Shown here: positions 17,174 through 64,000 of the stretch, in pieces
How positions within the stretch are numbered: the first letter of the stretch is position 1
How the letters are laid out: the number at the start of each line of letters is the position of its first letter
Assembly (NCBI GenBank): GCA_964645605.1
Contig: CAZYCE010000006.1
Coordinates: 2,981-66,980 of the forward strand
Reading direction: 5' to 3'
Length of the DNA stretch: 64,000 nucleotides
Source of the DNA: an uncultured Gammaproteobacteria bacterium
GTDB lineage: Bacteria; Patescibacteriota; Microgenomatia; UBA8517
Notes under the pieces: generated by a model
The model's database searches: none
What the model was told of the DNA's origin: nothing
What the model saw: the letters and a program-made list of their open reading frames with translations, nothing else
Translations under genes and position numbers: made by a program

Positions 17174-17884
17174 GTGGACACTCTTATCAAAGAATTATCC
17201 GTTTTTCTGCCTACATACAACGAGGAAGGTAACATAGCAGGAGTAATTGAAAATGTCGTCAAGGCTGCTTCTCAAAATGCCGAAAAATGGGAATTAATAG
17301 TGGTAGATGACGGTTCTATCGATTCAACGGCAGAAATTGTTTCAAAATTTGTAGAGTCAGACAGCCGCATTAAAATAATTAAGCACAAGAAAAATTCCGG
17401 TTATGGAGCGTCTCTCAAAACAGGGTTATACAATTCGAAATATAATTGGATTTCATTTATAGATTCCGACGGCCAGTTTGATTTCGGCGAAATAAATAAA
17501 TTTATTCAAAAGCAAAAGGAAACGGGAGCGGATATCGTCATTGGTTACTACAAAAAAAGAAAGGCGTCATCCTTAAAAATAATCACCAGTAAAATTTGGG
17601 AAGCCCTGGTGTTCATCCTTTTCGGTCTTAAAGTACGGGATATTGATTGTGGATTTAAACTTATTTCCAAAAGGGTGATTGAAAAAATTCCCAAACTGGA
17701 AAGTGAAAGAGGGGCGTTTATCAGCAGTGAACTATTGGTTAAGGCAAAAAAGAACGGATTCAAAATAGTGGAGATTCCCGTTACTCATTACCCGCGGTTA
17801 AAAGGAGAAGGGACGGGAAGAAAATTAAATGTGATTGTCGAAAGCTTCATAGATCTTTTCAGGCTGTGGAAAAAATTGCGATGA
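17174..17884 (+). CDS. GT2 polyprenyl-phosphate glycosyltransferase (DPM1/GtrB-like)
   Basis: LSVFLPTYNEEGNI, VVDDGSIDST, FIDSDGQFD. Confidence 0.8.
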   Translation: MDTLIKELSVFLPTYNEEGNIAGVIENVVKAASQNAEKWELIVVDDGSIDSTAEIVSKFVESDSRIKIIKHKKNSGYGASLKTGLYNSKYNWISFIDSDGQFDFGEINKFIQKQKETGADIVIGYYKKRKASSLKIITSKIWEALVFILFGLKVRDIDCGFKLISKRVIEKIPKLESERGAFISSELLVKAKKNGFKIVEIPVTHYPRLKGEGTGRKLNVIVESFIDLFRLWKKLR

Positions 17885-29554: not shown

Positions 29555-29572
29555 AAATGGTAGAATTTAGGC

Positions 29573-32480: not shown

Positions 32481-32519
32481 ATTTTACTAACCCCATAAGT
32501 GGTCTTAGCGTGCTAGAAC

Positions 32520-32528
32520 TGGTAAAAT
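32520..32528 (+). promoter_or_regulatory. Extended -10 element TGgTAAAAT, 7 nt upstream of the wzx ATG 32536 (candidate leaderless promoter)
   Basis: Sequence read directly; no Shine-Dalgarno; 55-nt intergenic region. Confidence 0.3.
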
Positions 32529-32535
32529 TTAGATT

Positions 32536-47403: not shown

Positions 47404-48482
47404 TGTTCCTTTATCTCGTAGGTGCTACCTAGATACTTTTCAAGTCTGAGTGATTCTCTGGTTTTTACATCGATAGATATAACTGCAATTTGGAAAATTA
47501 CGAAAATGATAGTGATGGCTAAAAATATTCTACCGATTATATTCCCCTTTAGATTTAGTAGGCTGAAAATTCCCTGCGAAATTACAAAAATTATTATTGG
47601 GAAGAAAAGAATAAGGCGGTTTAACGACACAATATCTTTTGCAAGGATCGATGGAATTGTCAATATAGTAGAGATTAATAAAATTTTTCTTGTACGTGAA
47701 TTTTGGAGTAGTTTATACAGTCCGTAGGCAAAAGGGATTATGAAACCCAAAATTATCGGTGGACTAAATGAAAATCCTAAAAGCTTGTATTGCGGGGTAA
47801 AAAAAGCCACGGGCATCAGCTGAGAAATATATTTTAAGACAAAGTACTCGCTAAAAAATAGATATTTATTCTCGGAAAGTCTAGCCAGATTTTTATATCC
47901 TTTTTCAGCGGCAGCACCCTGGTAACGGTTTACAGTATTAAGAAGACCGGGATCGGAAAAAATTTGTATCTCGTTACTCAAACTGTTTCTAAATCCGGTT
48001 ACATTTCTAATGGTAAATAGAAAAAGCGGAATTAATAGTACAGTAGTAATCAGTAAAGAAGTTTTCAAGTCTTTTTTGGGCACTATCTTAAATAAAATTA
48101 ACGCTGAAAATATAAGGGGAACAATCAATAAAAAGTTTATGGAGCTGTAAATCCCAATTATCAAACCGGAAATCAAAGTAATGTTCCCCAAAATTCTATT
48201 TTTTCCCCGAACGAGCAAAAGCCCATGGATGGTCAGCAGTGTCGGGAAGAGTAGAAAAACATAAAATGAATGGGCAAGTGTTAAGTAATAAACCCATGGG
48301 GAAAGAAGGTAAATTAAAATCGGAATAAATCGAGTTTTGCCTTTCAAAAAGTGTCCCGCTATAAGCCAGATTATAAGGGCGTTAATTATAAAAATTGGGA
48401 TGTAAAATTGATCCGGAATTGTTACTGTTGTGCGTAGTACATCGGCAAAAAATAAATTTTTCACTGTATAATGAAGAGGCAT
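47400..48482 (-). CDS. Polytopic membrane protein, shorter family-A-related paralog lacking the N-terminal DE loop
   Basis: C-terminal half resembles family A (KYLFFSEYFVLKYISQLMP compared with NYLSHFTPDFLF); start set to the internal ATG because the 5' end overlaps a divergent gene. Confidence 0.4.
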   Translation of the reverse strand: MPLHYTVKNLFFADVLRTTVTIPDQFYIPIFIINALIIWLIAGHFLKGKTRFIPILIYLLSPWVYYLTLAHSFYVFLLFPTLLTIHGLLLVRGKNRILGNITLISGLIIGIYSSINFLLIVPLIFSALILFKIVPKKDLKTSLLITTVLLIPLFLFTIRNVTGFRNSLSNEIQIFSDPGLLNTVNRYQGAAAEKGYKNLARLSENKYLFFSEYFVLKYISQLMPVAFFTPQYKLLGFSFSPPIILGFIIPFAYGLYKLLQNSRTRKILLISTILTIPSILAKDIVSLNRLILFFPIIIFVISQGIFSLLNLKGNIIGRIFLAITIIFVIFQIAVISIDVKTRESLRLEKYLGSTYEIKEQ

Positions 48483-48484
48483 AT

Positions 48485-49969
48485 ATGCATAGGTTACCAT
48501 ATTTAAAAATAGTTGTCTTCACTATTGTTTTGATATTTACCTTCATTCTTAGAGCTCACAATTATGAAAGGGTTCCGACCTCAAACCATTTAGATGAGCA
48601 GCTCTATGCGCTTTCCGGAATTAATTTAATTGAAACAGGAACTCCGGTCTCGTGGTCAACTCTGGATTACCCGAAAAGTGCAGAGGTTTTTAAAGGTGCA
48701 ATCTCATATAAAGGAGGAGCGCCTTCCGCGTCGGTAACTTTGTATAAACCCTGGCTGGATGAGCCGCCTGCCTTTTCTTTAATAGTTGGCGAGGCAGCCC
48801 ATCTTTTCCATGCCGACAGGAACGGTTTTATCCCATCCTCCTACATCCGGTTTCCGATGATTTTTATATCTGCCCTAACTTCGATTTTCGTATTTCTGAT
48901 AGCCAGAAAAGTCAGCGGCTACTGGACGGGGATATTGGCAATGCTGATTTACGGAACTGAACCGATTATGGTAATGGCTTCAAGATCGGCCATGCCGGAG
49001 ACTTTTATTGCACTTCTTTTCTGTTTAAGCGTTTATCTGCTCTTAAAATATCAAGATTCTAAAAAATTTATATATATTGCCCCGATTCCTATTCTGGCCG
49101 GAATTGCGGGGCTTTCTAAACCAACAGGCTACTTTATATTGCCGCTGGCTATTTTTGTAGTTTTTGTAAGGCTTTATAAGGATAAGCCTGTTAAATGGCG
49201 GCCGATAATTAAAAACCTTGCCTATTTAATTCTTGCAACCCTGCCTTTTCTTGCGATTTACATCTGGTACGGCAATCATTTTAGTCCGGAAATATTTTCA
49301 AGGATTCTTTCTATTCAAGGTTCCCGTCCCGCAGGTTTTAACAGTCTTGCCTGGTTTTTCATAACCCCCAGTTTTGATACATCAATTTTCAGGAGCAGCT
49401 GGTATGTTTTTTGCCTTGCCGCGGCCGCCTTCTTTGTTTTCCGACCTAAAGAAAAATCGGCGCAACTTATTAGTTTGAGTTTTGTTTATTGGCTGGCCGT
49501 TATAATGCTGTCCTCGGGTGAAAATGATCTTTTAGCCTGGTACCGTTTTCCGATATTGCCTTTTTTGGCAATTTTTGGCGCATGGGGGATTCAATATCTT
49601 TTTAAGAAAGCTGATTTCTTTGCGACATTCTTTGCTGCAGGGTTTCTGCTTGGAAGCAGAATGCTTTTAGTTAACGCTTTTCGTCCGAATATTGCAGTCG
49701 GAACCTATCGTCTGGCTTTTTGTAGCCTGGTTGCCCCCTCTTTACTTAATTTGGTGTTCAAAAAAGACTGGCTTAAGAAAATTTCTCAAATTGTAATTAT
49801 TGGTGTGGTAATTGTGGGTATGTGGTGGAACGTTAAATATATTTACAATGCTTATGAACTTGCTTGCGAGAGCCAAACTTGTCCTATGGTTCCGTCTACC
49901 GCGCTCTCAAGCCTTCACTATCCCTTGATCTGGCGCTTCTTTGTATTAGGCAAACCTGCCCTACAATAA
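48485..49969 (+). CDS. GT-C-fold membrane glycosyltransferase (ArnT/PMT-like)
   Basis: NHLDEQLYALSGINLIETGTPVSW first-loop motif; internal ATG 48485 chosen to minimise the divergent overlap. Confidence 0.55.
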   Translation: MHRLPYLKIVVFTIVLIFTFILRAHNYERVPTSNHLDEQLYALSGINLIETGTPVSWSTLDYPKSAEVFKGAISYKGGAPSASVTLYKPWLDEPPAFSLIVGEAAHLFHADRNGFIPSSYIRFPMIFISALTSIFVFLIARKVSGYWTGILAMLIYGTEPIMVMASRSAMPETFIALLFCLSVYLLLKYQDSKKFIYIAPIPILAGIAGLSKPTGYFILPLAIFVVFVRLYKDKPVKWRPIIKNLAYLILATLPFLAIYIWYGNHFSPEIFSRILSIQGSRPAGFNSLAWFFITPSFDTSIFRSSWYVFCLAAAAFFVFRPKEKSAQLISLSFVYWLAVIMLSSGENDLLAWYRFPILPFLAIFGAWGIQYLFKKADFFATFFAAGFLLGSRMLLVNAFRPNIAVGTYRLAFCSLVAPSLLNLVFKKDWLKKISQIVIIGVVIVGMWWNVKYIYNAYELACESQTCPMVPSTALSSLHYPLIWRFFVLGKPALQ

Positions 49970-50009
49970 TTTACATGACGTTTTGAAGCTGGTAACATTG
50001 AGGTAATAT

Positions 50010-51659
50010 ATGAAGAAGAAACTTTATCCGTTTTTTTTGGGGCTGATTCTTATTACCGCTTTCTTTCTGAGAATTTACAAAGTTACTTCCATTCCCCCTT
50101 CCCTAAACTGGGATGAAGTTTCAATAGGTTACAATGCCTATTCCATCCTTAAAACCGGACGCGACGAGTGGGGGGTAAAATTCCCGTTAAATTTTAAATC
50201 GTACGGAGAGTATAAACTTCCCGGGCAGATTTATGCCTCGATACCGGCGATTGCCGTTTTTGGATTAAATGAATTTGGGGTAAGGATTACTCCCGTAATT
50301 TACGGCACACTAAGCGTTTTATTGCTTTATCTTTTAGTCCAGGAATCTTTTGGTAAAAAAGAAATATCCTTAATGTCAGCCTTTTTCCTGGCGGTTTCCC
50401 CTTGGCACATACAGCTGACTAGGGCATCTTTAGAGTCTTCTTTTGCGCTTTTCTGGGTGGTGATGGGAGTTTGGTTTTTCCTTAAAGGTTTGAAAAAACC
50501 AAAGTGGCTGGTTTTTTCAATGCTTCCTTTTGCGGTTTCCGTTTATACCTACAATAGTGCCCGCGCCTTCATTCCGCTTTTTCTTTTTGCCTTGGTGATT
50601 ATTTATAGAAAGTATTTCCGGAAAGTTAAAAAATGGTTTTTTGCGGCGGGGATTTTGTTTGCCGTTCTGATGGCTCCTTTGATTCCGATGGTTGTTTCGG
50701 GAGAAGCCTCCGCCAGATACAAACTTGTAAGCATCACCGATGAAAAGGGTTTGATTCCCAGAATTGAAGAGAGAAGAAACAATTCAACTTTGCCGTCTAC
50801 CGTCAACAAAATGATAAACAATAGATATACGTATGTAAGTTACTATTTTGCAAGAAATTATTTGTCCCATTTTACTCCGGACTTTCTTTTTATCCACGGA
50901 GCAGGACATAGACAGCACCATGTTCAGGGGGTGGGAGAACTTTACTGGTTCCAGGCCCCATTCATTATTTTGGGGATCTATTATTTGTTAAAGAAAAAAA
51001 ATCCCAATTTGAAAGTTCTTGTTCCGTGGTTTTTACTGGCGTTTGTTCCGGTATCCGTAACAAATGACAGTATTCCGAATGCCTTAAGGACCTTAAATGC
51101 GGTTCCTGTTTACCAAATTTTTACGGCCTTGGGAATTTATTATGCTTATAAGCTGATCAAGAATAAAAAAGTTTTTAATGTACTTATCGGTGCGGTAACG
51201 GCTCTATTCTTAATTAATTTTGCCGTTTATTTTACTAACCTTTTTGTATATTATCCGCTCAGGTACTCCCGGGATTGGCAATATGGCAATAAAGAAGCTG
51301 TCGAATATATAAAAAACCACCGGGATAATTACGATTTAATTGTTTACAGCCGTACCTATGGCGAACCGCATATGTTCACTTTGTTTTATCTTGGTTATGA
51401 TCCCGCCAAGTTTCAAAATAGCCCAAACTTAGACAGGTTTGAAACATACGATTGGGTTAGGGTTTTGCGTTTTGATAAATTTTATTTTCCGGATCTGGGG
51501 GATGCGGGTACAAAGTATCAGGATGTAGTTAATGCGAATCCCGGCCAGAGAATTCTTTTTATAGGTAAACCTCAGGATTTTCCTGCGGAAGCGGCAGTGC
51601 TTGAACAAATTAATTTTCTTGACGGCACCGGCGCCTTCAAAATAGTTGAAAAGATATGA
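50010..51659 (+). CDS. GT-C-fold membrane glycosyltransferase, paralog family A
   Basis: PSLNWDEVSIGYNAYSILKTGRDEWGVKFPLNF; GAGGT Shine-Dalgarno-like sequence 5 nt upstream; C-terminal DGTGAFKIVEKI. Confidence 0.65.
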   Translation: MKKKLYPFFLGLILITAFFLRIYKVTSIPPSLNWDEVSIGYNAYSILKTGRDEWGVKFPLNFKSYGEYKLPGQIYASIPAIAVFGLNEFGVRITPVIYGTLSVLLLYLLVQESFGKKEISLMSAFFLAVSPWHIQLTRASLESSFALFWVVMGVWFFLKGLKKPKWLVFSMLPFAVSVYTYNSARAFIPLFLFALVIIYRKYFRKVKKWFFAAGILFAVLMAPLIPMVVSGEASARYKLVSITDEKGLIPRIEERRNNSTLPSTVNKMINNRYTYVSYYFARNYLSHFTPDFLFIHGAGHRQHHVQGVGELYWFQAPFIILGIYYLLKKKNPNLKVLVPWFLLAFVPVSVTNDSIPNALRTLNAVPVYQIFTALGIYYAYKLIKNKKVFNVLIGAVTALFLINFAVYFTNLFVYYPLRYSRDWQYGNKEAVEYIKNHRDNYDLIVYSRTYGEPHMFTLFYLGYDPAKFQNSPNLDRFETYDWVRVLRFDKFYFPDLGDAGTKYQDVVNANPGQRILFIGKPQDFPAEAAVLEQINFLDGTGAFKIVEKI

Positions 51660-53170
51660 AAAAAGAACGGATTTTTTTATTTCTAATTCTTGGATTTTTC
51701 TTGTTTACAAGGTTTTATAAAATTAGCCAAATCCCGCCCTCCGTTTACTGGGATGAAGCTTCGATCGGGTATAACGCCTATTCCGTTTTACAGGACGGCC
51801 GGGATGAGTGGGGGAATTTTCTGCCTCTTCATTTTAGGGCTTTTGGTGAATTTAAATTACCGGTTTATATTTATTCCGTCGCAATATCGGAAAAATTATT
51901 CGGATTGAATTCTTTTTCTGTCCGTCTTCCGTCCGTTATTTATTCCGCCTTTTCCCTGATTCTGGTTTACCTTATTTCCAAAAAGATTTTTAGTGGAAGC
52001 TCGGGACTCCTTTCTGCCTTGGTTTTTTCGGCTTGTCCTTGGTATTTTATCTTTAGCCGTACGGGTTATGAAGTATCTGCCGGTTTATTCTTTTTCCTTT
52101 TGGGAACATACTTTTTCCTGAAAACCGAGAAAAAAAATTACTTTTTCCCGTTTGGCATTTTGTCTTTTATTCTTTCTTTTTATAGTTACAACTCATTTCG
52201 CATCCTCATTCCTATTTTCTTACTGGTTTTCGGTTTGGCCTTTATCTTAAGAAAGGATGTAAAAACAAAAGCTAAATTATTTTATATAGTTTCCGGGATA
52301 GTTTTGTTTCTATTGGTTTTGTTTCCCGTTTATCGTCTTTACAAATTTGATGCCGGTGGCGCGCGCTTGACACAGGTACAAGTCTCGGGAGCGGCGGATG
52401 TATTTAAAAATTATCTTTCCCATTTTTCCCCGCAATTTCTTTTTAATAGCGGAGACTCCAACTCCAGGAGTAGTGTTCCCGGTTTTGGAGAGCTTTTTCC
52501 GGTGATTGCTCCATTTTTGATAATCGGTACTTTTGTTATATTCAAGAAAAAGCAAAAATTTTGGTGGTTGCCGTTTTTGGCAATATTGCTAGGTCCGATT
52601 CCCGCCGCGGTCACCAGGGAGTCTCCCCATGCCTTAAGGGCAATCTTAATGATTCCCTTTCTTTCGATGGTTGCCGGAGTGGGTATTGATAGTTTTGCAG
52701 GTTTTTTCGGAAGAGCTAAAAAGATGTTTATCTTTGGAGTGCTTTTCTTGCTTGCCGTATCTTTTAAAAATTATTTTATCGATTTTACAACAAAATATTC
52801 TTCTGATTCGTCTGCCCAGTGGCAATTTGGCTACAAGAAAATTTTTGAGGATTATCTTGCCGATTTTGCCGAATATGACAAGGTTGTAATTTCCGATGCC
52901 TATGCCCAGCCTTATATTTTTGGGCTTTTTTATCAAAAATATGACCCGGGATATTTCAGACAAAGTGTTGTCTACAATACGGTTGATCAATGGGGCTTTT
53001 CGACCGTCAAAAGTTTTGATAAATTCCTGTTTAAGAAAGTAACAGCGGACGATTTATCCGAAAACTCAATAGTTTTTGCAACCGTACAAGACAAAATAAA
53101 CGATGAAAAACCGGTGGAAGAAATTAAGAACCCCGACGGGACAACTGCTTTTTGGGTGTACACAAAATGA
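51656..53170 (+). CDS. GT-C-fold membrane glycosyltransferase, paralog family A
   Basis: PSVYWDEASIGYNAYSVLQDGRDEWGNFLPLHF; C-terminal NPDGTTAFWVYTK; ATGA overlap with upstream gene. Confidence 0.65.
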   Translation: MKKERIFLFLILGFFLFTRFYKISQIPPSVYWDEASIGYNAYSVLQDGRDEWGNFLPLHFRAFGEFKLPVYIYSVAISEKLFGLNSFSVRLPSVIYSAFSLILVYLISKKIFSGSSGLLSALVFSACPWYFIFSRTGYEVSAGLFFFLLGTYFFLKTEKKNYFFPFGILSFILSFYSYNSFRILIPIFLLVFGLAFILRKDVKTKAKLFYIVSGIVLFLLVLFPVYRLYKFDAGGARLTQVQVSGAADVFKNYLSHFSPQFLFNSGDSNSRSSVPGFGELFPVIAPFLIIGTFVIFKKKQKFWWLPFLAILLGPIPAAVTRESPHALRAILMIPFLSMVAGVGIDSFAGFFGRAKKMFIFGVLFLLAVSFKNYFIDFTTKYSSDSSAQWQFGYKKIFEDYLADFAEYDKVVISDAYAQPYIFGLFYQKYDPGYFRQSVVYNTVDQWGFSTVKSFDKFLFKKVTADDLSENSIVFATVQDKINDEKPVEEIKNPDGTTAFWVYTK

Positions 53171-54768
53171 GAAAGTATCTAAGCTGCATAATTCTTTTTA
53201 CTATTTTTATAGGAGCGCTTTTTTTAAGAATTTATAAGTTGGATCAAGTTCCTGCTTCCCTGAATTGGGACGAGGTGGATGCGGGCTATAATGCCTACAC
53301 TATTGCGAATTGGGGTGTTGATGAATGGGGCCGTAAGTTTCCTCTGGTTTTTCGCTCGTTTTATGACGATAAACATCCGGTCCACATTTATATAACAGCG
53401 GTTTTTGTTAAGTTTTTTGGACTCAGTGATTTTACAACGCGTCTTCCCAGCGCGATTTTTGGAGCTTTAGGGGTCTTAGTTGTTTTTTATCTGGGCAGAC
53501 GTTTATTCAAAAATGATTTGCCTGCATATTTTGCGGCAATTTTTCTGGCGGTCTCACCATACCATCTTCAGTTCTCCAGAGGACTTTGGGAAGTTAACTT
53601 CGCCTTCTTTTTCTTTATATTGGGGCTTCTGTTTTTTTACCTCGGGAGAGATAAAAATAGATGGTTCTTCCCGTTTTCTTTTTTAGGGTTCGGACTTTCA
53701 ATGTACTCATATCATTCGGCCAAAGTCGTGGTTCCTCCGATGATAATCCTTCTTTGCATTTTATATTTCAAGGATTTGATAAAAAACAAAAAAGCCCTTT
53801 TACTCAGTTTTATTGTTTTAGCCGTTTTTATAGCAGGTTTTATTTTTAATCCCGGATTATTGGGTTTCGCCCGTGCCGAACAAAACCGATTTCCCGAAGG
53901 GTCAATAAAGGAAACTTATCTTTATCAAAAAACGGGGAATAGATACTTGGCTACTTTAGAAATTGCAGCCGGAAATTATACAAAATACTTTACTCCGGAT
54001 TACCTTTTTGTACACGGCGATCAAAACCCGCGGAATTCGGTTAAAGTGTTCGGGGAGTTCTATAAAATTGAAGCACTTTTTATTGCCGCCGGAATTGTCT
54101 TTATGTTGGTAAGGCCAAGAAAGGAATGGCTCGTTCTTGCCGTCTGGCTTGCGCTTGCACCGATTCCGGGTGCTCTTTCAGGTTTCACTCCAAACGCAGC
54201 CAGAGGGCTTTTTATGATGGGTAGCATGCATCTTGTTGGCGCATACGGGCTTTATAGCTTAGCGAATTTATTCAGAAACAAGACGGTTCGGGGTGCCGTT
54301 GTAGTTGCCCTTCTGGCCCCCCTTTTTTGGGAATTTTCAAATTATCTTAACTATTACTACACAAATTATTACAAGAAAGACGCTATTGAGTGGCAATACG
54401 GCATGAAACAGATTGTTGCCTACATTAAGAACAATCCCTACTATGACAAAATATATATGACCAAAGAAAGACAACAACCATATATATTTATCCTGAATTA
54501 TCTGGAGTATCCCGTAAAAAAATACCTGGCCTCGGTTCGGTATGACGAAAGTCAGAGTAAAAGTTACAATGTAGCCAGATCCTTCGGAAAATTCCAGTTC
54601 TCGGATTGGAATACGGTTGAGAGTTACCCCGCCCCTTATGTGCTTTATGTTCTTACTCCAAGCCAGTATGATGGGTTAAGGTACAGACTGATGTTTGATG
54701 TGGTTGATTTGATAAAATATCCCGACGGATCAGATGCTTATTTTTTGGTAACCGCCAAAGTATATTAA
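53152..54768 (+). CDS. GT-C-fold membrane glycosyltransferase, paralog family A
   Basis: ASLNWDEVDAGYNAYTIANWGVDEWGRKFPLVF; C-terminal YPDGSDAYFLVTAKVY. Confidence 0.65.
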   Translation: MGVHKMRKYLSCIILFTIFIGALFLRIYKLDQVPASLNWDEVDAGYNAYTIANWGVDEWGRKFPLVFRSFYDDKHPVHIYITAVFVKFFGLSDFTTRLPSAIFGALGVLVVFYLGRRLFKNDLPAYFAAIFLAVSPYHLQFSRGLWEVNFAFFFFILGLLFFYLGRDKNRWFFPFSFLGFGLSMYSYHSAKVVVPPMIILLCILYFKDLIKNKKALLLSFIVLAVFIAGFIFNPGLLGFARAEQNRFPEGSIKETYLYQKTGNRYLATLEIAAGNYTKYFTPDYLFVHGDQNPRNSVKVFGEFYKIEALFIAAGIVFMLVRPRKEWLVLAVWLALAPIPGALSGFTPNAARGLFMMGSMHLVGAYGLYSLANLFRNKTVRGAVVVALLAPLFWEFSNYLNYYYTNYYKKDAIEWQYGMKQIVAYIKNNPYYDKIYMTKERQQPYIFILNYLEYPVKKYLASVRYDESQSKSYNVARSFGKFQFSDWNTVESYPAPYVLYVLTPSQYDGLRYRLMFDVVDLIKYPDGSDAYFLVTAKVY

Positions 54769-56426: not shown

Positions 56427-57047
56427 CTACTTTTCTCCCAGAAATATTCTTGGGTTTACCGGAATTCCGAATATATTAATTTGAAAATGAAGATGCGGTC
56501 CTGTTGCCCAACCGGTTTGCCCCTCTGCCCCGATTAGGTCACCGGGTTCTACAATTTGACCCGCAGATACATAAATATTACTGAGATGTGCGTAAATTGA
56601 TTGGATTCCGTCTCCGTTGTCTATTATAACGTGCTTTCCGAAACCCCACGATATTTTTCCCGCGTATATAACTTTCCCCTCCATAAACGCCCTAACCGGG
56701 TCTCCTATCCGGTGTTCCGGATTTGCGATGTCTATTCCTGTATGTAAAGGCTGGTAGGGAAGATTGCTTTGACCAAACTCAAGAGTGATCACGCCTTTTA
56801 CGGGCCAGACTATTTTTTTATCAATTGTGGCGACTATCGATCCGTTCAGCGGATTATAGATCTCTATCCTTTGGGTTTTTGAATTAAAAGATGCGAGTTT
56901 ATCTGAAACCATGTCTATTCCGGTTTGGGTTAGGGTAACTACGGCAATAACCGGCATCGCCAATATAAAAAGAAAAGCCAGAAAGACGTAGGTCAGCTCC
57001 TTTCTGAATGACCAAACGGCGGCGATACCGCCGGGAGATATTCCCAT
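56427..57047 (-). CDS. Membrane-anchored M23/LytM-family peptidoglycan endopeptidase
   Basis: HTGIDIANPEH (HxxxD) and GQTGWATGPHLHFQI (HxH) zinc-binding motifs; N-terminal TM; its start codon directly abuts the VirB4 stop. Confidence 0.85.
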   Translation of the reverse strand: MGISPGGIAAVWSFRKELTYVFLAFLFILAMPVIAVVTLTQTGIDMVSDKLASFNSKTQRIEIYNPLNGSIVATIDKKIVWPVKGVITLEFGQSNLPYQPLHTGIDIANPEHRIGDPVRAFMEGKVIYAGKISWGFGKHVIIDNGDGIQSIYAHLSNIYVSAGQIVEPGDLIGAEGQTGWATGPHLHFQINIFGIPVNPRIFLGEK

Positions 57048-58802
57048 TTAAGTGTAGATTTCCCTGGGATCGGTGGTTAAAAGAGGATGTTCTTTTTCGG
57101 ATGCGACTACTTTAATTGCCACATGGTTCTGGTCCGCAATAATAAGTGCCTCACCTTTGTCACAAGTTAAGAGGAACTTTTGTTCATATTCGCTGAGATT
57201 AAATTCGCCGGCAACTTTTTTGATTGTGGTCGTGTCCTGTTTCATCAAAATACGGAGTGCGGATTGGGAAGCAATGGCCCGCCCGTACTCCTGAGCCAGA
57301 AAATCCTGAGCCTGCTGGGATATGATGGTTACCCCCAGATAGTACTTTCTGGCACGTCTGACAAGCCCTGCCATGAATCTTGCGCTTTCCTCCTGGGCCA
57401 GAAGGATCCAACCCTCATCAATGACAAGTATTCTTTTTCTGGGGTTGGTTTTAACTTGCGATTGAACAAAGTTGGCCAGAACCAACATCATAATCGGCCT
57501 GATGGTTTCGCTTAAGTCTTTTATATCAAACACCACAAGTCGGTTATCCAATTCAATGTTTGTCTGGGAGTCAAACATTGACGAAAGGGAACCTTTAATA
57601 AATCTTTCGAGCCGGTCACAAAGATTTTTTTGCCCCATTTTCTTAAGGACCCTATAGAAATCCTTAAGCAGTGGATACTTTTTGTGTTTTTCTTTCTTTG
57701 TTTTTATTGACCAGCCGAACTTTTTATAAGTTGCAATCAGGGCTTTATCGGTAATTGCTTTTTCCTCATCATTAAGAGTTCCCACCATGAGGGAAATTAT
57801 TTCGGTCAGATTTTGGATATGTTCGGCCAGATTGTTTTCTCCGGTGAAACCGGTGAGGGCAAAATCAAAAGGGTTAATCTTCTCCAAAGACCGAGCGGAG
57901 AGCTTTATGTAGGTTCCGGAAACACTGGAAGCAAGCTGTTTGTATTCCCTTTCCGGGTCGATGACGATAACGCTGGTTCTTTGCATAAGATGTCTCAAAA
58001 TTTCCACTTTTGCGGTATAACTTTTTCCGGAACCCGATTGGGCAAATAGGATTGAGTTGGCATTGTTTAGTGAAAATCTGTCAACTATGACCAGGGAATT
58101 GTTTGATCGGTTAATGCCATATAGGATGCCGGTTTCCTGAACGAGTTCCGATGAAATAAAAGGAAAAGTCAAAGCGGCACTTGAACTGTCCAGGTTTCTT
58201 TTTTGGGCAAGCAAATTTTCTCCCCGGGGAAGAATTGATTGCAGTGCTTCGATTTGTTGGAATGTTGCAATCTTTGTGTAAAAGAGCCTTGTGGACATCA
58301 TTGTTTCGAGAAGTTTTGTAATTTTATCCAGATCAGGCAAAGTATCGGCGGAAATGGCCAGATAGATTGAAACTTGAAAAAGTTTTTGCTGACCTCTTTG
58401 GATTTTGTCTCTAAGCTCCGTAGCCGATTCCAAAGGATCGGTTAATTCCGATCCGAAAACACGGCCTTCTTTTTGATAGGTTCTTTTTGTCGATTCAAGT
58501 TCGGTAATTTTCCTATTTAATTTCGGCAGAGCCGTTAATGGGTCCACTTGCTCAATGTGGTAGCTGATGTCGATGTTGTGATTGAAATTGACAAGCATAT
58601 TAAGCCAGCCGGTTGAGGCGATATAGGGGTAACCGGAAATAAACAGGCTTCGCACAAACTTGTTTTCAATCTGAATATAGGTTGGTTCTTCGGCCAGACC
58701 GGAATAGGAAATAAGATCGACCTGATCTTCCTCCCCGAAATCAAACTGAAAAGATTTCTTTAAAGTTTCCTTTTGTGATATTTTGCCCTTTTTGAATTTC
58801 AT
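57048..58802 (-). CDS. virB4: VirB4/TrbE/TraC-family type IV secretion ATPase, C-terminal ATPase portion
   Basis: Walker A AQSGSGKS, Walker B ILVIDEGW, VIVIDPEREY, VRSLFISGYPYIASTGWLNMLVNF region typical of CagE/TrbE/VirB4. Confidence 0.8.
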   Translation of the reverse strand: MKFKKGKISQKETLKKSFQFDFGEEDQVDLISYSGLAEEPTYIQIENKFVRSLFISGYPYIASTGWLNMLVNFNHNIDISYHIEQVDPLTALPKLNRKITELESTKRTYQKEGRVFGSELTDPLESATELRDKIQRGQQKLFQVSIYLAISADTLPDLDKITKLLETMMSTRLFYTKIATFQQIEALQSILPRGENLLAQKRNLDSSSAALTFPFISSELVQETGILYGINRSNNSLVIVDRFSLNNANSILFAQSGSGKSYTAKVEILRHLMQRTSVIVIDPEREYKQLASSVSGTYIKLSARSLEKINPFDFALTGFTGENNLAEHIQNLTEIISLMVGTLNDEEKAITDKALIATYKKFGWSIKTKKEKHKKYPLLKDFYRVLKKMGQKNLCDRLERFIKGSLSSMFDSQTNIELDNRLVVFDIKDLSETIRPIMMLVLANFVQSQVKTNPRKRILVIDEGWILLAQEESARFMAGLVRRARKYYLGVTIISQQAQDFLAQEYGRAIASQSALRILMKQDTTTIKKVAGEFNLSEYEQKFLLTCDKGEALIIADQNHVAIKVVASEKEHPLLTTDPREIYT

Positions 58803-58803
58803 A

Positions 58804-59472
58804 TTATTTGCCCTCCAAAAGAGCCCGGACCACCTCGCCTTTAAGCTCTTGGGTTTTTATTTGATCGGGGTTATAAAAGCTATAGAAAAGATCAAGAATT
58901 TCCAGGCTTTCCAGGATTTTAGATTTCATTCCCAGCTTTTCCAAACCTTTTATTACAATATCGCGGTTCAATTCGATCTGTTCTTTGATAAATTTAAAGT
59001 CGCTTCCGTGGTCGCTCCCTTTATAAGGGATGATCACATAGAAACGGCGGGAGAGAATTTTATTTCCGGCGATAAGATTTTTAACAAATAGGGAATAGTT
59101 ATCGAGTTGATTTTTGTATACCTTTTCTTTTTCCCCGTCCCTCATTTTCGATATTTGTTCCAGATACCTTTCAATATCGATTTCCCTTACCCTTATTAAA
59201 ATTTGAAGCGAGGTCGGAAGGGAATTGAGAAAATTCTCAAATTCATCAATAATTACATCCTGCTCATCTTCGCTTTTGAGTTCAAAGTTGACCGAAGAGG
59301 TTTCAATAATTGACCTGTATTCGTTACACGGTAAGACCAAAATTCCGTCCCTGACCTCTTTTATTTGAATTTGCCGTCTGGAACTTACTTTATTTTTCGA
59401 TTTGGTCCAAAACAACATTAAACCCTCCTTTCTTTTTGATCTTGAACGTAATATTTTCCTTGTCTTTTTCAA
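58804..59472 (-). CDS. VirB4-family N-terminal domain encoded as a separate ORF
   Basis: IKEVRDGILVLPCNEYRSIIETSSVNFELKSEDEQDVIIDEFENFLNSL matches the start of VirB4/TrbE proteins; its stop lies 1 nt before the ATPase ORF start and in a different frame; 222 + 584 aa is about a full-length VirB4. Confidence 0.6.
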   Translation of the reverse strand: MKKTRKILRSRSKRKEGLMLFWTKSKNKVSSRRQIQIKEVRDGILVLPCNEYRSIIETSSVNFELKSEDEQDVIIDEFENFLNSLPTSLQILIRVREIDIERYLEQISKMRDGEKEKVYKNQLDNYSLFVKNLIAGNKILSRRFYVIIPYKGSDHGSDFKFIKEQIELNRDIVIKGLEKLGMKSKILESLEILDLFYSFYNPDQIKTQELKGEVVRALLEGK

Positions 59473-59890
59473 AAATGCTTTGCTCCCTTACTCCGATCGG
59501 TTGTAGACGGGACTTTCTTTTCGATTCGGAGGGTCTAACCGATTTGGCGTGTTTTTTCCCGGGGTCAACTATGCCTGCCTCTCTCAGATAGGCGTCATTT
59601 TTATTGAATACGTAGTATTTAGGCCGGATGTTGTAGCGCAAGATAAGGATCAGCCAGTTAATTATTAATTTCTCATCAATTTTTAACGATAATATAAACG
59701 AAATTATGAGAACGGGTATTGTTAAAACCAGCTTATACCAGGCGATTGACATAGTTGGAACAAAAAGTATGTAAACTATACCTGCCCAAAAAACAGGAAA
59801 CATCAGAATTAGAATTTGCGTCAAACTTAAGTTCCCGGCAATTTTGTCTTCAACCGTCGTAATTTGAGCCGGAATTATAGTTGTCTTCAT
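59390..59890 (-). CDS. Small integral membrane protein, VirB3-like by position and topology
   Basis: Two to three TM helices in the N-terminal half, charged C-terminal tail; located immediately upstream of the VirB4 ORFs. Confidence 0.3.
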   Translation of the reverse strand: MKTTIIPAQITTVEDKIAGNLSLTQILILMFPVFWAGIVYILFVPTMSIAWYKLVLTIPVLIISFILSLKIDEKLIINWLILILRYNIRPKYYVFNKNDAYLREAGIVDPGKKHAKSVRPSESKRKSRLQPIGVREQSIFEKDKENITFKIKKKGGFNVVLDQIEK

Positions 59891-61179
59891 GGCTTTTCTG
59901 CCCTTTTATAAACTTTTGTTAACTCATTCTTTATGGTACTTTCTTTGGAAAACTCTTCGGTACCGGAACTTACCACGTTGACTACCTGTCTGCCTATACC
60001 TTTGAAGGTTTCATTACGTGAGGCTGAAAGAAGCATTTCCATCGCAAGCGATGGCGTTTTTAAGAGAGTTGCGAAAAGGCCGATAGCTACGGCAATTGAA
60101 ATAAGTGAACCATTGGAATTGCCCGGAATTGTTAAAAATGCTGAGGCCAGTTGGATGATCACAACATGGATGAAAACCGTAAATACGCTAACAAAGTAGC
60201 TTTTGACGGCCATTTCGGCAAATCCCGATAATTTTGGAATAGACCACAAAAGAAACACAAAAGGCGACAGAGCGCCGGCAATGGAAATTAAGATAAGTCT
60301 GCTTATATAGAATAAGAGAAGAACCACCGCAATTATTAGGAAAAGCATCAGGAAAATCAGGGTAATGAGGGGAGTTTCTCCCGTAATCAAACTCGCCGGG
60401 TTGATTGCATCCAAAATCCAGGCCTGATTTAAGCCGCCCGTTGCGTTTAACACGGTTTTTACCAGAACATTTGCTGTTGTTATCACATAATCCGTCAGAA
60501 ATAGTGAGACGTTAGCGCCGAGGAATGCGATACCTATTCTCGGTAGGATTATTCTGGATTCAAGCTCCTCAAAACCTAAGGTGGAGGCACTCATTATTCG
60601 AAATCCCAAAAGTGCCGTCACTATTACGAAAAGAGAATCAACGATGCCCAGACTGATCAGCCAAAAGTTGCTGATCACAGAATTTTCCAAGAGGCTTGGG
60701 GTAGTTGTAAGAAAACCGATAATACCATCGACAATCGGTTTTGTGGCACTTTGCACGATATTTTGCATAAAACTTGAAACGGCGTCTATTAAGACCTGCG
60801 TCAGGCCGTCGGTTGGGGTTACCGGGGATATTTGTGTAATCGGAATAACCGATCCTGATTCGGTTGGGGCATTGGAGCCGACCGCACCTCTGAAAACTGA
60901 AATTATTAAACCCGATGCGAGAACAACAACCAGACCGATAAGGGCGTTTCTGATGGTTTTTTTCGCATCCTCAAGACGGTCGGGACTACCGGATGAGGTT
61001 ATGTAGCCAATTCCGCCCTTGATGATGAAAAAAACCGCAGCAACGGAGGCGATTGTTGTAATTATTCCGAGAGTATTATTGGTGTAATCGGTTATTCCGG
61101 AAGGGACGTCGGCTGCCGCAACCGGTGTGGCAAATAGAAAGAAAAGAACTATTGTTAGAAAAAAGATAACCTTTTTCAT
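59887..61179 (-). CDS. Fusion protein: N-terminal VirB2/TrbC-like pilin domain plus a C-terminal VirB6/TrbL-like polytopic membrane domain
   Basis: Signal peptide MKKVIFFLTIVLFFLFATPVAAAD; residues ~40-95 (GGIGYITSSGSPDRLEDAKKTIRNALIGLVVVLA) are near-identical in pattern to the standalone pilin at 61226-61558; followed by at least 6 TM helices. Confidence 0.5.
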   Translation of the reverse strand: MKKVIFFLTIVLFFLFATPVAAADVPSGITDYTNNTLGIITTIASVAAVFFIIKGGIGYITSSGSPDRLEDAKKTIRNALIGLVVVLASGLIISVFRGAVGSNAPTESGSVIPITQISPVTPTDGLTQVLIDAVSSFMQNIVQSATKPIVDGIIGFLTTTPSLLENSVISNFWLISLGIVDSLFVIVTALLGFRIMSASTLGFEELESRIILPRIGIAFLGANVSLFLTDYVITTANVLVKTVLNATGGLNQAWILDAINPASLITGETPLITLIFLMLFLIIAVVLLLFYISRLILISIAGALSPFVFLLWSIPKLSGFAEMAVKSYFVSVFTVFIHVVIIQLASAFLTIPGNSNGSLISIAVAIGLFATLLKTPSLAMEMLLSASRNETFKGIGRQVVNVVSSGTEEFSKESTIKNELTKVYKRAEKP

Positions 61180-61225
61180 TTAAGTTATGTTCAGACTTTT
61201 TCATAGGCAGGACCTTTTTTAAACC

Positions 61226-61558
61226 TTATTGCATTCCGCCAAAAGCGGATGTTGCAAGTTGTGTGACAATATTTGACAAAACAAAAGCAGCAAGAACTAT
61301 TACAAGTCCGACCACCGAATAACGTATAGTTCTTTTGGATTTATCAAGCGACTCAGGATTACCTGAACTGGTAATGTATCCGATACCTCCCCACACCAAA
61401 AATCCGGTTGCCGTAATTCCTGCCAGGGTTACCAGAATTTGAATAATACTCTGAATAAAGGTTTGAATTTTGGTGACGTCGGTGGATTGTGCGTAGACAC
61501 TAGTCGCGTAAATTAGTGAGGTAATTAAAACCGATTGTAGAAAAATTAATTTCTTCAT
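61226..61558 (-). CDS. VirB2/TrbC-like conjugative-type pilin
   Basis: 110 aa; signal peptide MKKLIFLQSVLITSLIYATSVYAQS, two hydrophobic helices separated by GGIGYITSSGNPESLDKSKRTIR; GGGGTGA Shine-Dalgarno-like sequence 8 nt upstream of ATG 61558. Confidence 0.55.
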   Translation of the reverse strand: MKKLIFLQSVLITSLIYATSVYAQSTDVTKIQTFIQSIIQILVTLAGITATGFLVWGGIGYITSSGNPESLDKSKRTIRYSVVGLVIVLAAFVLSNIVTQLATSAFGGMQ

Positions 61559-61801
61559 CTTATTCACCCCCATTCGTAATTAAAAAGGTTTCACTTTAAC
61601 CAAAATATGAAATCGTTGAAATGTATACCAGAGTTACCCATATATGTCAACAGGGTAATTTATTTATTCATAGATCTTATACTTATGAGGATTTGGCAAG
61701 AATGTAAAAATGGTCGGTCGCTTAGTAGACTTATTTAGAACAAAGCAATTTTTAATAGAAATAAATTATGATGAAGTTAGAAAATTACTGGAAAAACATT
61801 G

Positions 61802-62509
61802 CTATTCTCTATAGGAGCATTTAGTTTCACCAAAATCCTTTTTAAGGGTACCTAAATCCAAAGTGGTATATATATCGATGGCTGAGACACCTCCCTTATC
61901 TTTATTATTTAAATAATCTGGACAGTTTTCTTCATTGGCTACCTGATTCGTAGGTTCCCAATAAGAAACGGTGTTATTTAAAATAATTGGTTTACCTTCT
62001 CCTCCTGCATACATACCTTGATAAATTTTTGATTTTTTATCTAAATCATAAACCATTAGCCCTCTTATTCCGGCTGACGAGCCACTATCCAGTACGAGAA
62101 AGTTGTTATATAGGCCAATACAAAAAGTTCTTTCCTCTTTTATTATAAAATCTTGGTTTCCGTTATTATATTTAACCAAAAACTCACTTGTTGCATTATT
62201 TTGTGACGGTTCTTTAATTGTTATTGAATACTTGTCGTTGGCAGAGCAGTCGCTAACAACGATAGGTTCAGTATTGGGTTCGTCGGATAAAGCTGGTGTG
62301 GGGGTTGTAATAGGCACTGTTGTAAGTAGTGATATTTGTTTTTTCAGTTGTATATTTTGATAAACAAGATAGCCGATGGAGGCAACTGCCAGTATGTGGA
62401 TAGCAATCATTAGTGCTAAAGACTTCTTGGTCTTCTGTGGTTGAATGGGAGATGTAGTAGGCGGAGTTTGTGGAATAGCCGGTTGTGTTTGGGTCAGACT
62501 TTCATTCAT
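61802..62509 (-). CDS. Hypothetical bitopic protein with a Pro/Thr-rich N-terminus, one TM and a Cys-containing extracytoplasmic domain (VirB8-like topology)
   Basis: PAIPQTPPTTSPIQPQ N-terminus, TM LALMIAIHILAVASIGYLVY, ~170-aa C-terminal domain with 5 Cys. Confidence 0.4.
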   Translation of the reverse strand: MNESLTQTQPAIPQTPPTTSPIQPQKTKKSLALMIAIHILAVASIGYLVYQNIQLKKQISLLTTVPITTPTPALSDEPNTEPIVVSDCSANDKYSITIKEPSQNNATSEFLVKYNNGNQDFIIKEERTFCIGLYNNFLVLDSGSSAGIRGLMVYDLDKKSKIYQGMYAGGEGKPIILNNTVSYWEPTNQVANEENCPDYLNNKDKGGVSAIDIYTTLDLGTLKKDFGETKCSYRE

Positions 62510-62660
62510 ATAGTTAAGTATTAGTTACTGAGATAAAAAAGTCAAATTTAAGGCCAATCGAGGTTCTGTACCAACTTTCTTTAAAACTTTAATATCCTCG
62601 AGTTTTTTTAATTTCAATTGAGTTGTTCGTCTTGGGACATTAGTTCTTAGTTGTATTATG

Positions 62661-62678
62661 CTGTACATATATGTACAG
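62661..62678. promoter_or_regulatory. Perfect 18-bp palindrome CTGTACATATATGTACAG overlapping the start codon of the AbiEi-like ORF, preceded by TATTAT (62654-62659); candidate autoregulatory operator
   Basis: Reverse complement is identical to the forward sequence; ATG at 62671-62673 lies at the palindrome centre. Confidence 0.4.
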
Positions 62679-63027
62679 GATAAATGAACTAATCAAGCTT
62701 GATCGGAGACTGTATCACACCAACGATTTAGCCATTCTGTGGGGTGTTTCCAATAAAAACACTTTATATACAACCATTAAACGGTATGTTCAGAAAGAAA
62801 TTCTGATCCCTGTCTATAAAGGTTTGTGTTCTACAATTCCTCTATCTCAGCTAAACCCCCTGGAGATGGGAGTGGCGATTGTTCATAAATATGCATATCT
62901 GAGTACCGAATCTGTATTGGCTCAAAAAAGGAATTATTTATCAGGCTACTTACGGGTACACTTTTGTAAGCAGTGTATCAAAAAAAATAACCGTTGGTGG
63001 AATATCGTTTACTTATCGGATGCTTAA
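62671..63027 (+). CDS. AbiEi-like antitoxin N-terminal domain protein, possibly truncated
   Basis: YHTNDLAILWGVSNKNTLYTTIKRYVQKEILIPVYKGLCSTIP and AYLSTESVLAQ resemble AbiEi_4 motifs (F.T.DLA.L.G.S...L.R.V..G.L..V.KGLY / YLSlESAL); only 118 aa. Confidence 0.4.
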   Translation: MYRINELIKLDRRLYHTNDLAILWGVSNKNTLYTTIKRYVQKEILIPVYKGLCSTIPLSQLNPLEMGVAIVHKYAYLSTESVLAQKRNYLSGYLRVHFCKQCIKKNNRWWNIVYLSDA

Positions 63028-63129
63028 AGATAAATTTTTGAATAACCCATCGGGTTTTACAAACCAAAATGTGGGGAAAACTTTCTGACTAACGGCAACA
63101 GCTTTTGCTGAGATTCCGACAAAATTTCG

Positions 63130-63441
63130 TCATGCATATTGTCTGAAATAATTTGTAAAGTAATTTTTTGTTTGGGGGCGCAAATTCACTCTTTTTCCAC
63201 GGATAATTTCCTTAAATAAGCCTTGGGTTTTTTTAAGACCGAAAACCGACTCTGCTACTAGGTAATCTTCCCATGTTCCATAATTTAATATATGCTCAAG
63301 CATGCTTTTTTCGGAAAGCTTTTGAGTGTCTTTTACATACCAGGCTAAATACGGTTTTTGCCTGAATAACCCCACTAACTTATCCATATGCTTATTATAT
63401 AACAAACCGGTCACCATTTCCTGAGTTTCAGGCACCGCCAA
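63130..63441 (-). CDS. Hypothetical protein
   Basis: 103-aa ORF downstream of the AbiEii-like gene in a different frame; no motif recognised. Confidence 0.3.
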   Translation of the reverse strand: MAVPETQEMVTGLLYNKHMDKLVGLFRQKPYLAWYVKDTQKLSEKSMLEHILNYGTWEDYLVAESVFGLKKTQGLFKEIIRGKRVNLRPQTKNYFTNYFRQYA

Positions 63442-63468
63442 TTGTTGATAACCACAATTTTAACAGAC

Positions 63469-64000
63469 CTATTTGAGGAGCGAATCGGCAAGGCGAATAG
63501 ATTCACGAGTAAAAAACGTTTTTACTTCACTCCATTTAATATCCGCGAGCATTGTTGGCATGACAGTTTCCTTTTCCGCATCCTCAAAATAATCAAGTGA
63601 TCGCAAGGTCGCATACAGGCGGTCGCCTGAGATATTGTATTTTTTTTGATACAAGCTAATCATCTCTTGTAATGAAAATTTCTTTGCAAGAACATAGACA
63701 TCAATAAAATCGCGGCGGGTACCTCTATCCTCAATGGCATGGATTTTCATTGCGGCAATGTCAGATAAACTTGCCAAATGAAGTCCTTCAAATGGCACGG
63801 TGGGCTCAAGGAGTGGATACTTGTAGTGAAATATACTAAACTTCGTTTTTCCAATCGTTCCCCAAACTGTCCACTTAGCAGTACCGGCTTCGTGGAACGA
63901 TGTATGGGTGGCAAGTTTTCGAGAAAGTTTTTCTTCGTCAAACGTTTCGAGTGTAAAAAAATCCAGATCAACCGAAATGCGGTGTCCCATCTGTAGAGCC
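63469..64000 (-). CDS. AbiEii/DUF1814-family nucleotidyltransferase (type IV TA toxin-like), N-terminus beyond the window edge
   Basis: ALQMGHRISVDLDFF (R.S.DlDF motif) and GTRRDFIDVYVL (R.rDlyDl motif); frame remains open through position 64000. Confidence 0.6.
   Translation of the reverse strand, partial: ALQMGHRISVDLDFFTLETFDEEKLSRKLATHTSFHEAGTAKWTVWGTIGKTKFSIFHYKYPLLEPTVPFEGLHLASLSDIAAMKIHAIEDRGTRRDFIDVYVLAKKFSLQEMISLYQKKYNISGDRLYATLRSLDYFEDAEKETVMPTMLADIKWSEVKTFFTRESIRLADSLLK

Follow-up and report, generated by a model that had tools for sequence, protein, structure and literature searches.

A VirB2-like pilin module fused to a VirB6/TrbL-like membrane protein in a widespread type IV secretion cassette of Patescibacteria

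In type IV secretion, the mechanism by which VirB2 leaves the membrane and assembles on VirB6 is an open question. The locus described here raises it in an unusual form: can a pilin be part of the same polypeptide as VirB6, and what would it do there? The locus lies on the minus strand of a 64,000-nt stretch of DNA, here called the window (GenBank assembly GCA_964645605.1, contig CAZYCE010000006.1, forward-strand positions 2,981 to 66,980), which is labelled as an uncultured Gammaproteobacteria bacterium and has the GTDB lineage Patescibacteriota, Microgenomatia, UBA8517. Positions 59887-61573 hold a small gene and a gene for a 430-residue protein, read in a preliminary description as a pilin and a pilin-VirB6 chimera. 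We find that they are the first two genes of a compact six-gene type IV secretion system (T4SS) cassette of Patescibacteria, the candidate phyla radiation (CPR), which is of the monoderm type and resembles the mating-pair formation class FATA (MPF-FATA). The fusion architecture is real, old and widespread, and appears to be undescribed in the literature. The two proteins comprise the following parts.

61226-61558, minus strand: free VirB2/TrbC-like pilin, 110 aa from the second Met (the open reading frame extends to 61573); matches PF18895, PF04956 and Mbov_0395.
59887-61179, minus strand: entire gene, with its stop codon, of the 430-aa pilin::VirB6 fusion protein; open reading frame with an identical public protein (P0001).
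61114-61179, minus strand: predicted signal peptide of the fusion protein, residues 1-22, from the hydrophobic N-terminus; inferred cleavage after A22, between VAA and A.
60892-61098, minus strand: fused pilin domain, residues 28-96, consisting of helix, loop GYITSSGSPDRLEDAKKTI and helix; PF18895 at 39.9 bits and helices in AlphaFold2 (AF2) models.
60808-60891, minus strand: linker, residues ~97-124, rich in Ser, Thr, Pro and Gly; predicted local distance difference test (pLDDT) below 50, consensus mostly 'x'.
59968-60807, minus strand: VirB6/TrbL-like polytopic membrane core, residues ~125-404, with ~6 hydrophobic helices, beginning at an invariant GLTQ motif.
59890-59967, minus strand: hydrophilic C-terminal tail rich in Lys and Glu, residues 405-430, from hydropathy; pLDDT below 50.

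Both open reading frames (ORFs) lie on the minus strand where the preliminary description had put them, and the peptides quoted there occur verbatim in the translations. A gap of 46 nt separates the small ORF (61573-61226) from the larger one (61179-59887). The upstream product is indeed a pilin, of the VirB2/TrbC type, with 51.6 bits against PF18895 (cutoff 26.6), 43.8 bits against PF04956 (cutoff 27.9) and 43.6 bits against the NCBIfam Mbov_0395 pilin-like profile (cutoff 40). Although the full ORF has 115 aa, translation most likely begins at the second Met, at 61558, because the Shine-Dalgarno-like sequence GGGGGTG lies 6-8 nt upstream of it, the NCBI/Logan cluster representative has 110 aa and the BLAST alignment begins there. 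The protein has a hydrophobic leader, a predicted signal peptidase I site between VYA and Q, and a mature part of ~87 aa predicted to form a two-helix hairpin. By these sequence features, gene 1 encodes a VirB2/TrbC-like pilin that is probably Sec-exported. No pilus has so far been visualised for any Patescibacteria T4SS (PMC12857230).

In the product of gene 2, a second pilin module, complete with predicted signal peptide and two-helix hairpin, is joined to a VirB6/TrbL-like membrane protein. The resemblance of the two N-terminal regions, noted earlier from the sequence alone, is borne out by pairwise BLASTP (37/91 identities, 41%; 69% positives; E 9e-20). The alignment spans the initiator Met (MKK), the signal peptide, both helices and the loop, and is not limited to generic hydrophobic segments. 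The fused domain lies above the PF18895 cutoff and, at 25.1 bits, just under that of PF04956, and profiles of the free and fused domains, each built from 79 loci, align with a probability of 99.8% (hhalign, E 8e-28). Hydropathy places hydrophobic windows at residues 34-61 and 74-102 with the loop SSGSPDRLEDAKKTIRN between them, and helices at 27-61 and 66-100 were obtained in two independent AF2 models. These monomer models (pLDDT 61.7 and 63.3, the second from a more diverse alignment) were used for secondary structure and fold class only. They agree on a leader, two helices with a loop, a disordered stretch at 100-123 and a helical membrane domain.

Both modules carry a hydrophobic leader and a predicted (-3,-1) V-x-A site. 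In all 79 free and all 79 fused domains (100%) position -1 is Ala, aligned in one and the same column. Across the 79 loci, 16 columns share one residue between the two module types with a conservation of 90% or more; they comprise this Ala and the pattern F..(4)..G..Y.TS.G.P..L...K.TI.....GL..VL, centred on the inter-helix loop. The linker that follows is poorly conserved and predicted to be disordered, with pLDDT below 50 at residues 100-122 and 100-123 in the two models; its length of ~27 residues refers to the window protein. The pilin module occupies the place where unfused relatives have a signal peptide only.

The C-terminal part belongs to the VirB6/TrbL family, as judged from sequence and fold comparison. 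Homologues with ~60% identity reach 27.4-32 bits against PF19597 TrbL_4, over model positions 4-269 of 276 and residues ~127-405. When residues 100-430 alone were scanned against 1.84 billion representative proteins, 513 relatives were retrieved; among 46 remote full-length relatives of the core, 25 carry TrbL_4 and 11 TrbL/VirB6 (PF04610), and the family's C-terminal part aligns with those 46 proteins over 278 columns (hhalign, 99.96%, E 4e-39). A Foldseek search with the second, independent model ranked three TrwI chains first, a modelled fold similarity to a solved VirB6 at only 12-17% sequence identity. The family profile gave nothing meaningful against all PDB sequences (best sarcospan, E 0.056), and in the PDB VirB6 was reached by fold comparison only. 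Hydropathy indicates ~6 hydrophobic helices in residues 167-380, and the gene has the expected company: a PrgI/VirB3-like gene overlaps its stop codon, with TrsD and VirB4 next. With PF18895 at residues 28-96 and a VirB6/TrbL-type C-terminal part recognised by profile and fold, the chimera proposed in the preliminary description stands. A BLASTP match of pilin residues 33-79 to fusion residues 131-167 (E 0.011) raised the possibility that the core itself begins with a cryptic pilin; this candidate was rejected, as the profile-profile probabilities did not exceed 3%. The free and fused pilin profiles showed no similarity to the core or to the 46 remote TrbL proteins at more than this probability.

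The fusion is not peculiar to this genome. A search of 5.8 billion protein clusters with the fusion protein returned 1,146 matches. The best 120 of these are all ~420-450 aa long with PF18895, and those that bear a name are 'pilin' or 'hypothetical protein' entries from Patescibacteria lineages. Scanning a single genome for each GTDB species gave 208 loci, of which 80 were retrieved for analysis. In 79/79 informative loci a ~110-aa pilin gene stands immediately upstream of the ~430-aa fusion gene; the few others are truncated at a contig end or do not have both ORFs complete. The core alone finds 43 proteins of 350 aa or longer, with E values as weak as 4.5e-17 and identities as low as 26%, and every one of them has the pilin domain at its N-terminus. 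A divergent branch with 26-39% identity has precomputed PF18895 and PF19590 (and in part PF04610) annotations and the same gene order. Among loci that are 12 kb or longer, 52/52 have the complete order pilin, pilin::VirB6, PrgI, TrsD/TraC-like, VirB4, hydrolase. Throughout the cassette family the fused form is fixed.

These data also bear on whether two genes were merely read as one through a lost stop codon or frameshift, a general possibility in metagenome assemblies and one that the preliminary description had named. An assembly or gene-calling artefact is refuted for practical purposes, because the same uninterrupted fused ORF occurs, at 53-77% identity, in about 80 independent assemblies from different studies and assemblers; it also occurs in the branch of only 26-39% identity. 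Many cassette-bearing assemblies carry record labels from outside the CPR (L006, L010, L012, L017, L019, L042, L049, L053, L077 and L080), namely Gammaproteobacteria, Pseudomonadales, Omnitrophota, Limisphaerales, Methylococcaceae, Anaerolineae, Micrarchaeota and Methanobacterium. They are probably mislabelled or contaminated bins, the alternative being transfer outside the CPR.

The two modules have been separate for a long time. Over the 79 loci, mean identity is 67% among free pilins, 51% among fused domains and 32-33% between free and fused, the latter being equal within and between loci; the pair in the window, with 41%, marks the upper end of this range. For 158/158 domains, the nearest neighbour belongs to the same module type. 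Because all nearest neighbours are of the same type and free-fused identity is 32-33% throughout, the duplication predates the radiation of the cassette. On these sequence comparisons the modules are old paralogues, with neither recent duplication nor concerted evolution.

The unfused relatives P0175 and P0194 have a plain signal peptide directly on the core, an unfused locus (L087) has the order pilin, VirB6, PrgI, and actinobacterial relatives of the core have a signal peptide and a Pro-rich spacer. From these sequences we infer as the simplest history that a tandem pilin duplicate was fused in frame to the 5' end of virB6, where it replaced the signal peptide. The opposite direction, in which VirB6 had a pilin-like N-terminus from the start, free pilins arose from it by budding and the cassette keeps the ancestral state, has been proposed for CedA/CedA1, with a weak VirB6/VirB2 signal in Agrobacterium (PMC9905601). 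For the present family we consider it quite unlikely: the TrbL_4 domain at ~127-405 is complete and the pilin module lies outside this conserved VirB6 core, the pilin profiles find nothing in the core or in the N-termini of remote TrbL_4 and TrbL proteins, and relatives that have a signal peptide only, with or without a Pro-rich spacer, would require repeated loss. The unfused locus has an odd hybrid neighbourhood of its own (L087 2189-8167), in which a 77-aa pilin, a 323-aa TrbL_3 VirB6 and PrgI are followed by Tad/type-II-like genes instead of VirB4; downstream are a SAF-domain protein, a ParA-like ATPase, a T2SSE ATPase and two T2SSF proteins.

According to the ORF list and the sequence, the cassette forms a tight minus-strand operon of six ORFs at 56.4-61.6 kb, in the order small pilin ORF, 430 aa, 166 aa, 222 aa, 584 aa and 206 aa. 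Beyond the two proteins above it has the following features.

61622-61650, minus strand: promoter-like site 5' of the pilin gene, TTGACA at 61650-61645, a 17-nt spacer and TATACA at 61627-61622; consensus resemblance only.
59390-59890, minus strand: PrgI/VirB3-like membrane protein, 166 aa; Pfam PrgI 27.1 bits, cutoff 27.
58804-59472, minus strand: TrsD/TraC-like protein, 222-aa ORF; NCBIfam conju_CD1110 positions 11-172; TrsD.
57048-58802, minus strand: VirB4-type ATPase, 584 aa; NCBIfam conju_CD1110 366.7 bits, cutoff 325; Pfam P-loop_TraG and AAA_10.
56427-57047, minus strand: M23 peptidoglycan endopeptidase, 206 aa, with an N-terminal transmembrane (TM) segment; Pfam Peptidase_M23 101.6 bits.

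A CD1110/PrgJ-type VirB4, PrgI/VirB3, TrsD and a cell-wall hydrolase in one operon make the cassette MPF-FATA-like. The PrgI/VirB3-like start overlaps the stop codon of the fusion gene (ATGA), and the gene is kept in 52/52 long loci. The TrsD/TraC-like protein probably starts at an internal Met (~204 aa); it is the counterpart of the VirB4 N-terminal domain as a separate gene, is present in 52/52 long loci, and has orthologues that carry PF26593 TraC-like. The 222-aa and 584-aa ORFs are one base apart in different frames and could be taken for a frameshifted VirB4. This was rejected, because a separate TrsD/TraC-like gene is the rule in 52/52 loci and TrsD beside VirB4 has been reported in Patescibacteria (PMC12102498). 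The M23 endopeptidase takes the wall-opening role of the VirB1/PrgK type. Its gene occurs in 50/52 long loci, with a CHAP hydrolase instead in the divergent branch (L085 14355-14852 and L086 14390-14995), where it stands at the M23 position with the other five genes in order. The promoter and terminator scan performed no better than on shuffled sequence; the scanner demanded a second hexamer ending in T and did not list the TTGACA/TATACA site. Directly 5' of the pilin gene on the same strand is a 235-aa ORF (61802-62509) whose N-terminus is rich in Pro, Thr and Gln and precedes a single transmembrane segment. It matches no family, and lies outside the conserved cassette, because no homologue was found beside the cassette in the other 86 loci.

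What would a pilin do at the N-terminus of VirB6? In the R388 system, VirB6 forms a C5 pentamer that is the base of the pilus, with a VirB2 recruitment site on TM helix alpha1, and five VirB2 on five VirB6 subunits are proposed to be lifted, as by a lever, to the base of the pilus (Mace et al. 2022, PMC9259494). We slightly favour the possibility that the fused hairpins constitute a permanent, stoichiometric layer of pilin, serving as dock, primer or anchor, on a VirB6 platform. After cleavage of the signal peptide the hairpin would insert with both ends outside, placing the conserved basic loop (G..Y.TS.G.P..L...K.TI) in the cytoplasm, and the linker and the N-terminal helix of VirB6 outside. 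An outside start of the core fits the unfused relatives, in which the core comes after a signal peptide. Should the core form pentamers as in R388, each platform would bear five covalently tethered hairpins beside the VirB6 transmembrane region, the proposed place of recruitment of free VirB2. This tethered layer could capture free pilin by pilin-pilin contacts and hold the base of a short pilus or conduit built by the free pilin, with energy supplied by VirB4 together with TrsD and PrgI/VirB3 and the wall opened by the M23 hydrolase. Retention of the cytoplasmic loop motif suggests that both module types may be handled by the same partner. A priming or anchoring role for the tethered pilin, as suggested in the preliminary description, is compatible with the VirB6-platform model (PMC9259494).

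A bolder form of this reading is that pilin::VirB6 is a natural 'Rosetta-stone' fusion that freezes the normally transient VirB2-VirB6 recruitment complex and supplies, as five tethered hairpins per pentamer, the obligatory nucleating or anchoring layer of a VirB5-less monoderm pilus. We put this forward tentatively and regard it as unlikely, albeit a serious possibility. If it were true, the six-gene cassette could be the simplest self-sufficient pilus-forming T4SS known, and would give a structural handle on the hand-over of pilin from the membrane to VirB6 and on whether pilins and VirB6 N-termini have a common ancestor.

Several points weigh against a tethered pilin layer on a VirB6 platform. 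The C-terminal part of the window protein itself scores 14.3 bits against TrbL_4 (E 0.026), below the cutoff of 27. The AF2 models are moderately confident and silent on how the hairpins pack. Conjugative pili are thought to grow from the base, and a layer on a tether of ~27 residues, which reaches ~10 nm at most, cannot move along with the filament as it grows. Because of this short tether the fused layer is not the ordinary first layer of a long pilus; either it would have to stay as a dock, or the structure would have to be short. The lower conservation of the fused domain than of the free pilin suggests relaxed or different constraints. The T4SS of Southlakia, the one in Patescibacteria that has been shown to be essential, has six separate pilins and no recorded fusion; pilin-bearing T4SSs of the phylum accordingly do not require one.

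Some of the same evidence can be read differently. The pilin-like N-terminus could be a targeting or insertion device with two additional structural TM helices, sharing the export route of the pilin but taking no part in pilin docking or polymerisation. Beltran et al. interpreted the similarity of CedA and CedA1 as a common export pathway (PMC9905601), the fused domain is the less conserved of the two (51% versus 67%), and unfused relatives manage with a plain signal peptide. Yet if a plain signal peptide is enough for export, it is hard to see why the whole hairpin and the cytoplasmic loop motif are kept at 90% or more in both types over 79 loci, and why they persist even in branches only 26-36% identical, which is more than a membrane anchor needs. 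We therefore judge a targeting function to be unlikely, while giving it real weight. A cut in the linker would offer another solution, with the 430-aa protein as a pro-protein that releases a second (minor) pilin and a separate VirB6, and the fusion serving merely for co-expression. As a pilin the module is complete, with a predicted signal peptide of its own, and the disordered, poorly conserved linker, rich in Ser, Thr and Pro, would be exposed outside the membrane. The cassette, however, has no gene for a dedicated protease (its M23 or CHAP enzymes hydrolyse the cell wall), a conserved cleavage motif is absent from the linker and the tight operon already provides co-expression, all of which makes processing of this kind improbable.

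The cassette looks mobile, as indicated by variable flanks, 53-77% identity across CPR classes, double copies in some genomes and the occasional linkage of candidate coupling-protein and Replic_Relax genes. Its flanks vary by locus and include copper-resistance, BlaR-like, restriction-modification, AbiE and FtsK genes. In two unrelated genomes, copper-resistance and BlaR/M56-BlaI-like genes flank the cassette on opposite sides (L002 12849-17290 and L003 1-7424). The copper-resistance set consists of a multicopper oxidase, a cupredoxin, a P-type ATPase and a DsbA-like protein, and these genes and the BlaR/M56-BlaI-like ones may be cargo of the element. In the genome of the window, just past the window's end (L001 1712-5631), are genes for an 882-aa ATPase with a DUF87 and a faint TrwB_AAD_bind match, a 255-aa protein with a weak Replic_Relax match, and a DUF2958 protein. 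By sequence the ATPase is a candidate coupling protein. The same region just upstream of the cassette (window 62525-63990 and L001 1712-5631) also holds DUF6922 and an AbiEii toxin-like gene.

Because the trio of ATPase, Replic_Relax and DUF2958 genes accompanies the cassette, within 6 kb, in 11/52 long loci, some copies are suggested to be part of a transmissible element. Five assemblies have two cassette copies (L016/L022, L018/L050, L023/L027, L062/L066 and L034/L083), which lie on separate contigs or at separate positions, as fits a mobile element that was acquired repeatedly. Neither an integrase nor, in tRNA scans for an integration boundary, a tRNA boundary was found. A tblastn search of 72,556 PLSDB plasmids gave no fused homologue and one weak Streptomyces match to the core; the fusion family is not represented among plasmids of cultured bacteria. 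The mobile-looking cassette is a candidate vehicle for gene flow among ultra-small bacteria.

Elsewhere in the window is a run of paralogous membrane proteins of ~500-580 aa (17866-21894, 28073-41913, 45769-47403 and 48395-54768). Matches to PMT_2/PMT glycosyltransferase profiles were found for 7/10 ORFs scanned, two of which lie outside the run, and the run adjoins sugar-nucleotide genes, including a GDP-mannose dehydratase/epimerase fusion at 10452-12374. The profile matches point to glycosyltransferases for surface proteins or lipids that have been greatly expanded in number.

The present model of VirB2 assembly on VirB6 derives from R388, by co-evolution analysis and mutagenesis, and from AlphaFold modelling of Gram-positive systems. 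That the two partners occur naturally in a conserved fusion is independent evolutionary evidence for direct VirB2-VirB6 contact and for a 1:1 stoichiometry, and the fusion offers a stable construct for structural work.

Our literature search found no published description of a pilin::VirB6 architecture in Patescibacteria, and none is mentioned in the survey of Patescibacteria T4SSs by Quinonero-Coronel et al. 2025 (PMC12102498). That survey reports VirB4, TrsD, PrgI/VirB3, VirB6 and arrays of VirB2-like pilins, describes VirB6 as 'scarce' in Microgenomatia and discusses VirB3-VirB4 as the only fusions (PMC12102498). Patescibacteria T4SSs resemble the window system in phylum, MPF-FATA-related VirB4, separate TrsD, PrgI/VirB3, VirB6 and PF18895 pilins, and often lack a canonical relaxase. 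In contrast, published pilin genes are separate, in arrays of 2-11, and VirB6 is separate as well, whereas here one pilin module is part of VirB6, in a minimal six-gene cassette. Fusions may have been counted in 'pilin arrays' and overlooked as VirB6, since matches to hidden Markov models would say pilin. Their annotation as 'pilin' or 'hypothetical' may explain both the 'scarce' VirB6 of Microgenomatia and inflated 'pilin arrays'. Separate pilins are also described in two 2025 reviews and by Wang et al. 2023 (PMC10633639), who showed the T4SS of Southlakia epibionticum to be essential. Its SEML1_0013 differs from the window protein: it is VirB6-like and very large, has no pilin domain on record and has six free pilins after it.

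A preprint of December 2025 describes the Gram-positive VirB2-like PrgF beside VirB6 and models its assembly on a VirB6 pentamer (bioRxiv 10.64898/2025.12.18.695078). The Enterococcus pCF10 pair PrgF(B2)/PrgH(B6) is similar to our locus in being monoderm and in having a small two-TM VirB2-like gene beside a VirB6-like gene, followed by PrgI, VirB4 and a wall hydrolase. In pCF10 and the other Gram-positive systems, however, VirB2 and VirB6 are always separate, the VirB2-like proteins have almost no similarity to classical pilins and no fusion is mentioned, whereas both modules of the window match TrbC/T4SS_pilin profiles and one is fused. The R388 proteins TrwL(VirB2) and TrwI(VirB6) (PDB 7o3v) belong to a diderm system with VirB5, VirB7-11 and an outer-membrane complex, in which VirB2 is separate and transiently bound.

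The preliminary description knew of no such fusion. In our literature search this holds for Patescibacteria, but a homologous pattern has been noted in archaea: CedA is homologous in its N-terminal part to nearly all of the CedA1 pilin, and the same applies, more weakly, to Agrobacterium VirB6 and VirB2 (Beltran et al. 2023, PMC9905601). We regard this remark as the nearest and only precedent for the pattern. In the archaeal Ced/Ted systems the similarity is seen by profile-profile comparison only, within a protein of ~260 aa. In the window it is visible to BLASTP (41%) and resides in a discrete extra module outside the TrbL domain, with a linker, next to a free pilin with a predicted cleavable signal peptide.

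The integrative and conjugative element of Mycoplasma offers a final comparison. The free pilin passes the Mbov_0395 profile, and the PrgI-like, TrsD-like and VirB4 ORFs map consecutively on the 894-aa Mbov_0397. There, VirB3 is fused with VirB4 in a single VirB3-TrsD-VirB4 protein, whereas here VirB2 is fused with VirB6, and VirB3, TrsD and VirB4 are three genes. Fusion and fission of adjacent T4SS membrane components are a known theme. The cassette combines a known system, the CPR/monoderm T4SS, with a known partnership, that of VirB2 and VirB6, here hard-wired in one polypeptide.

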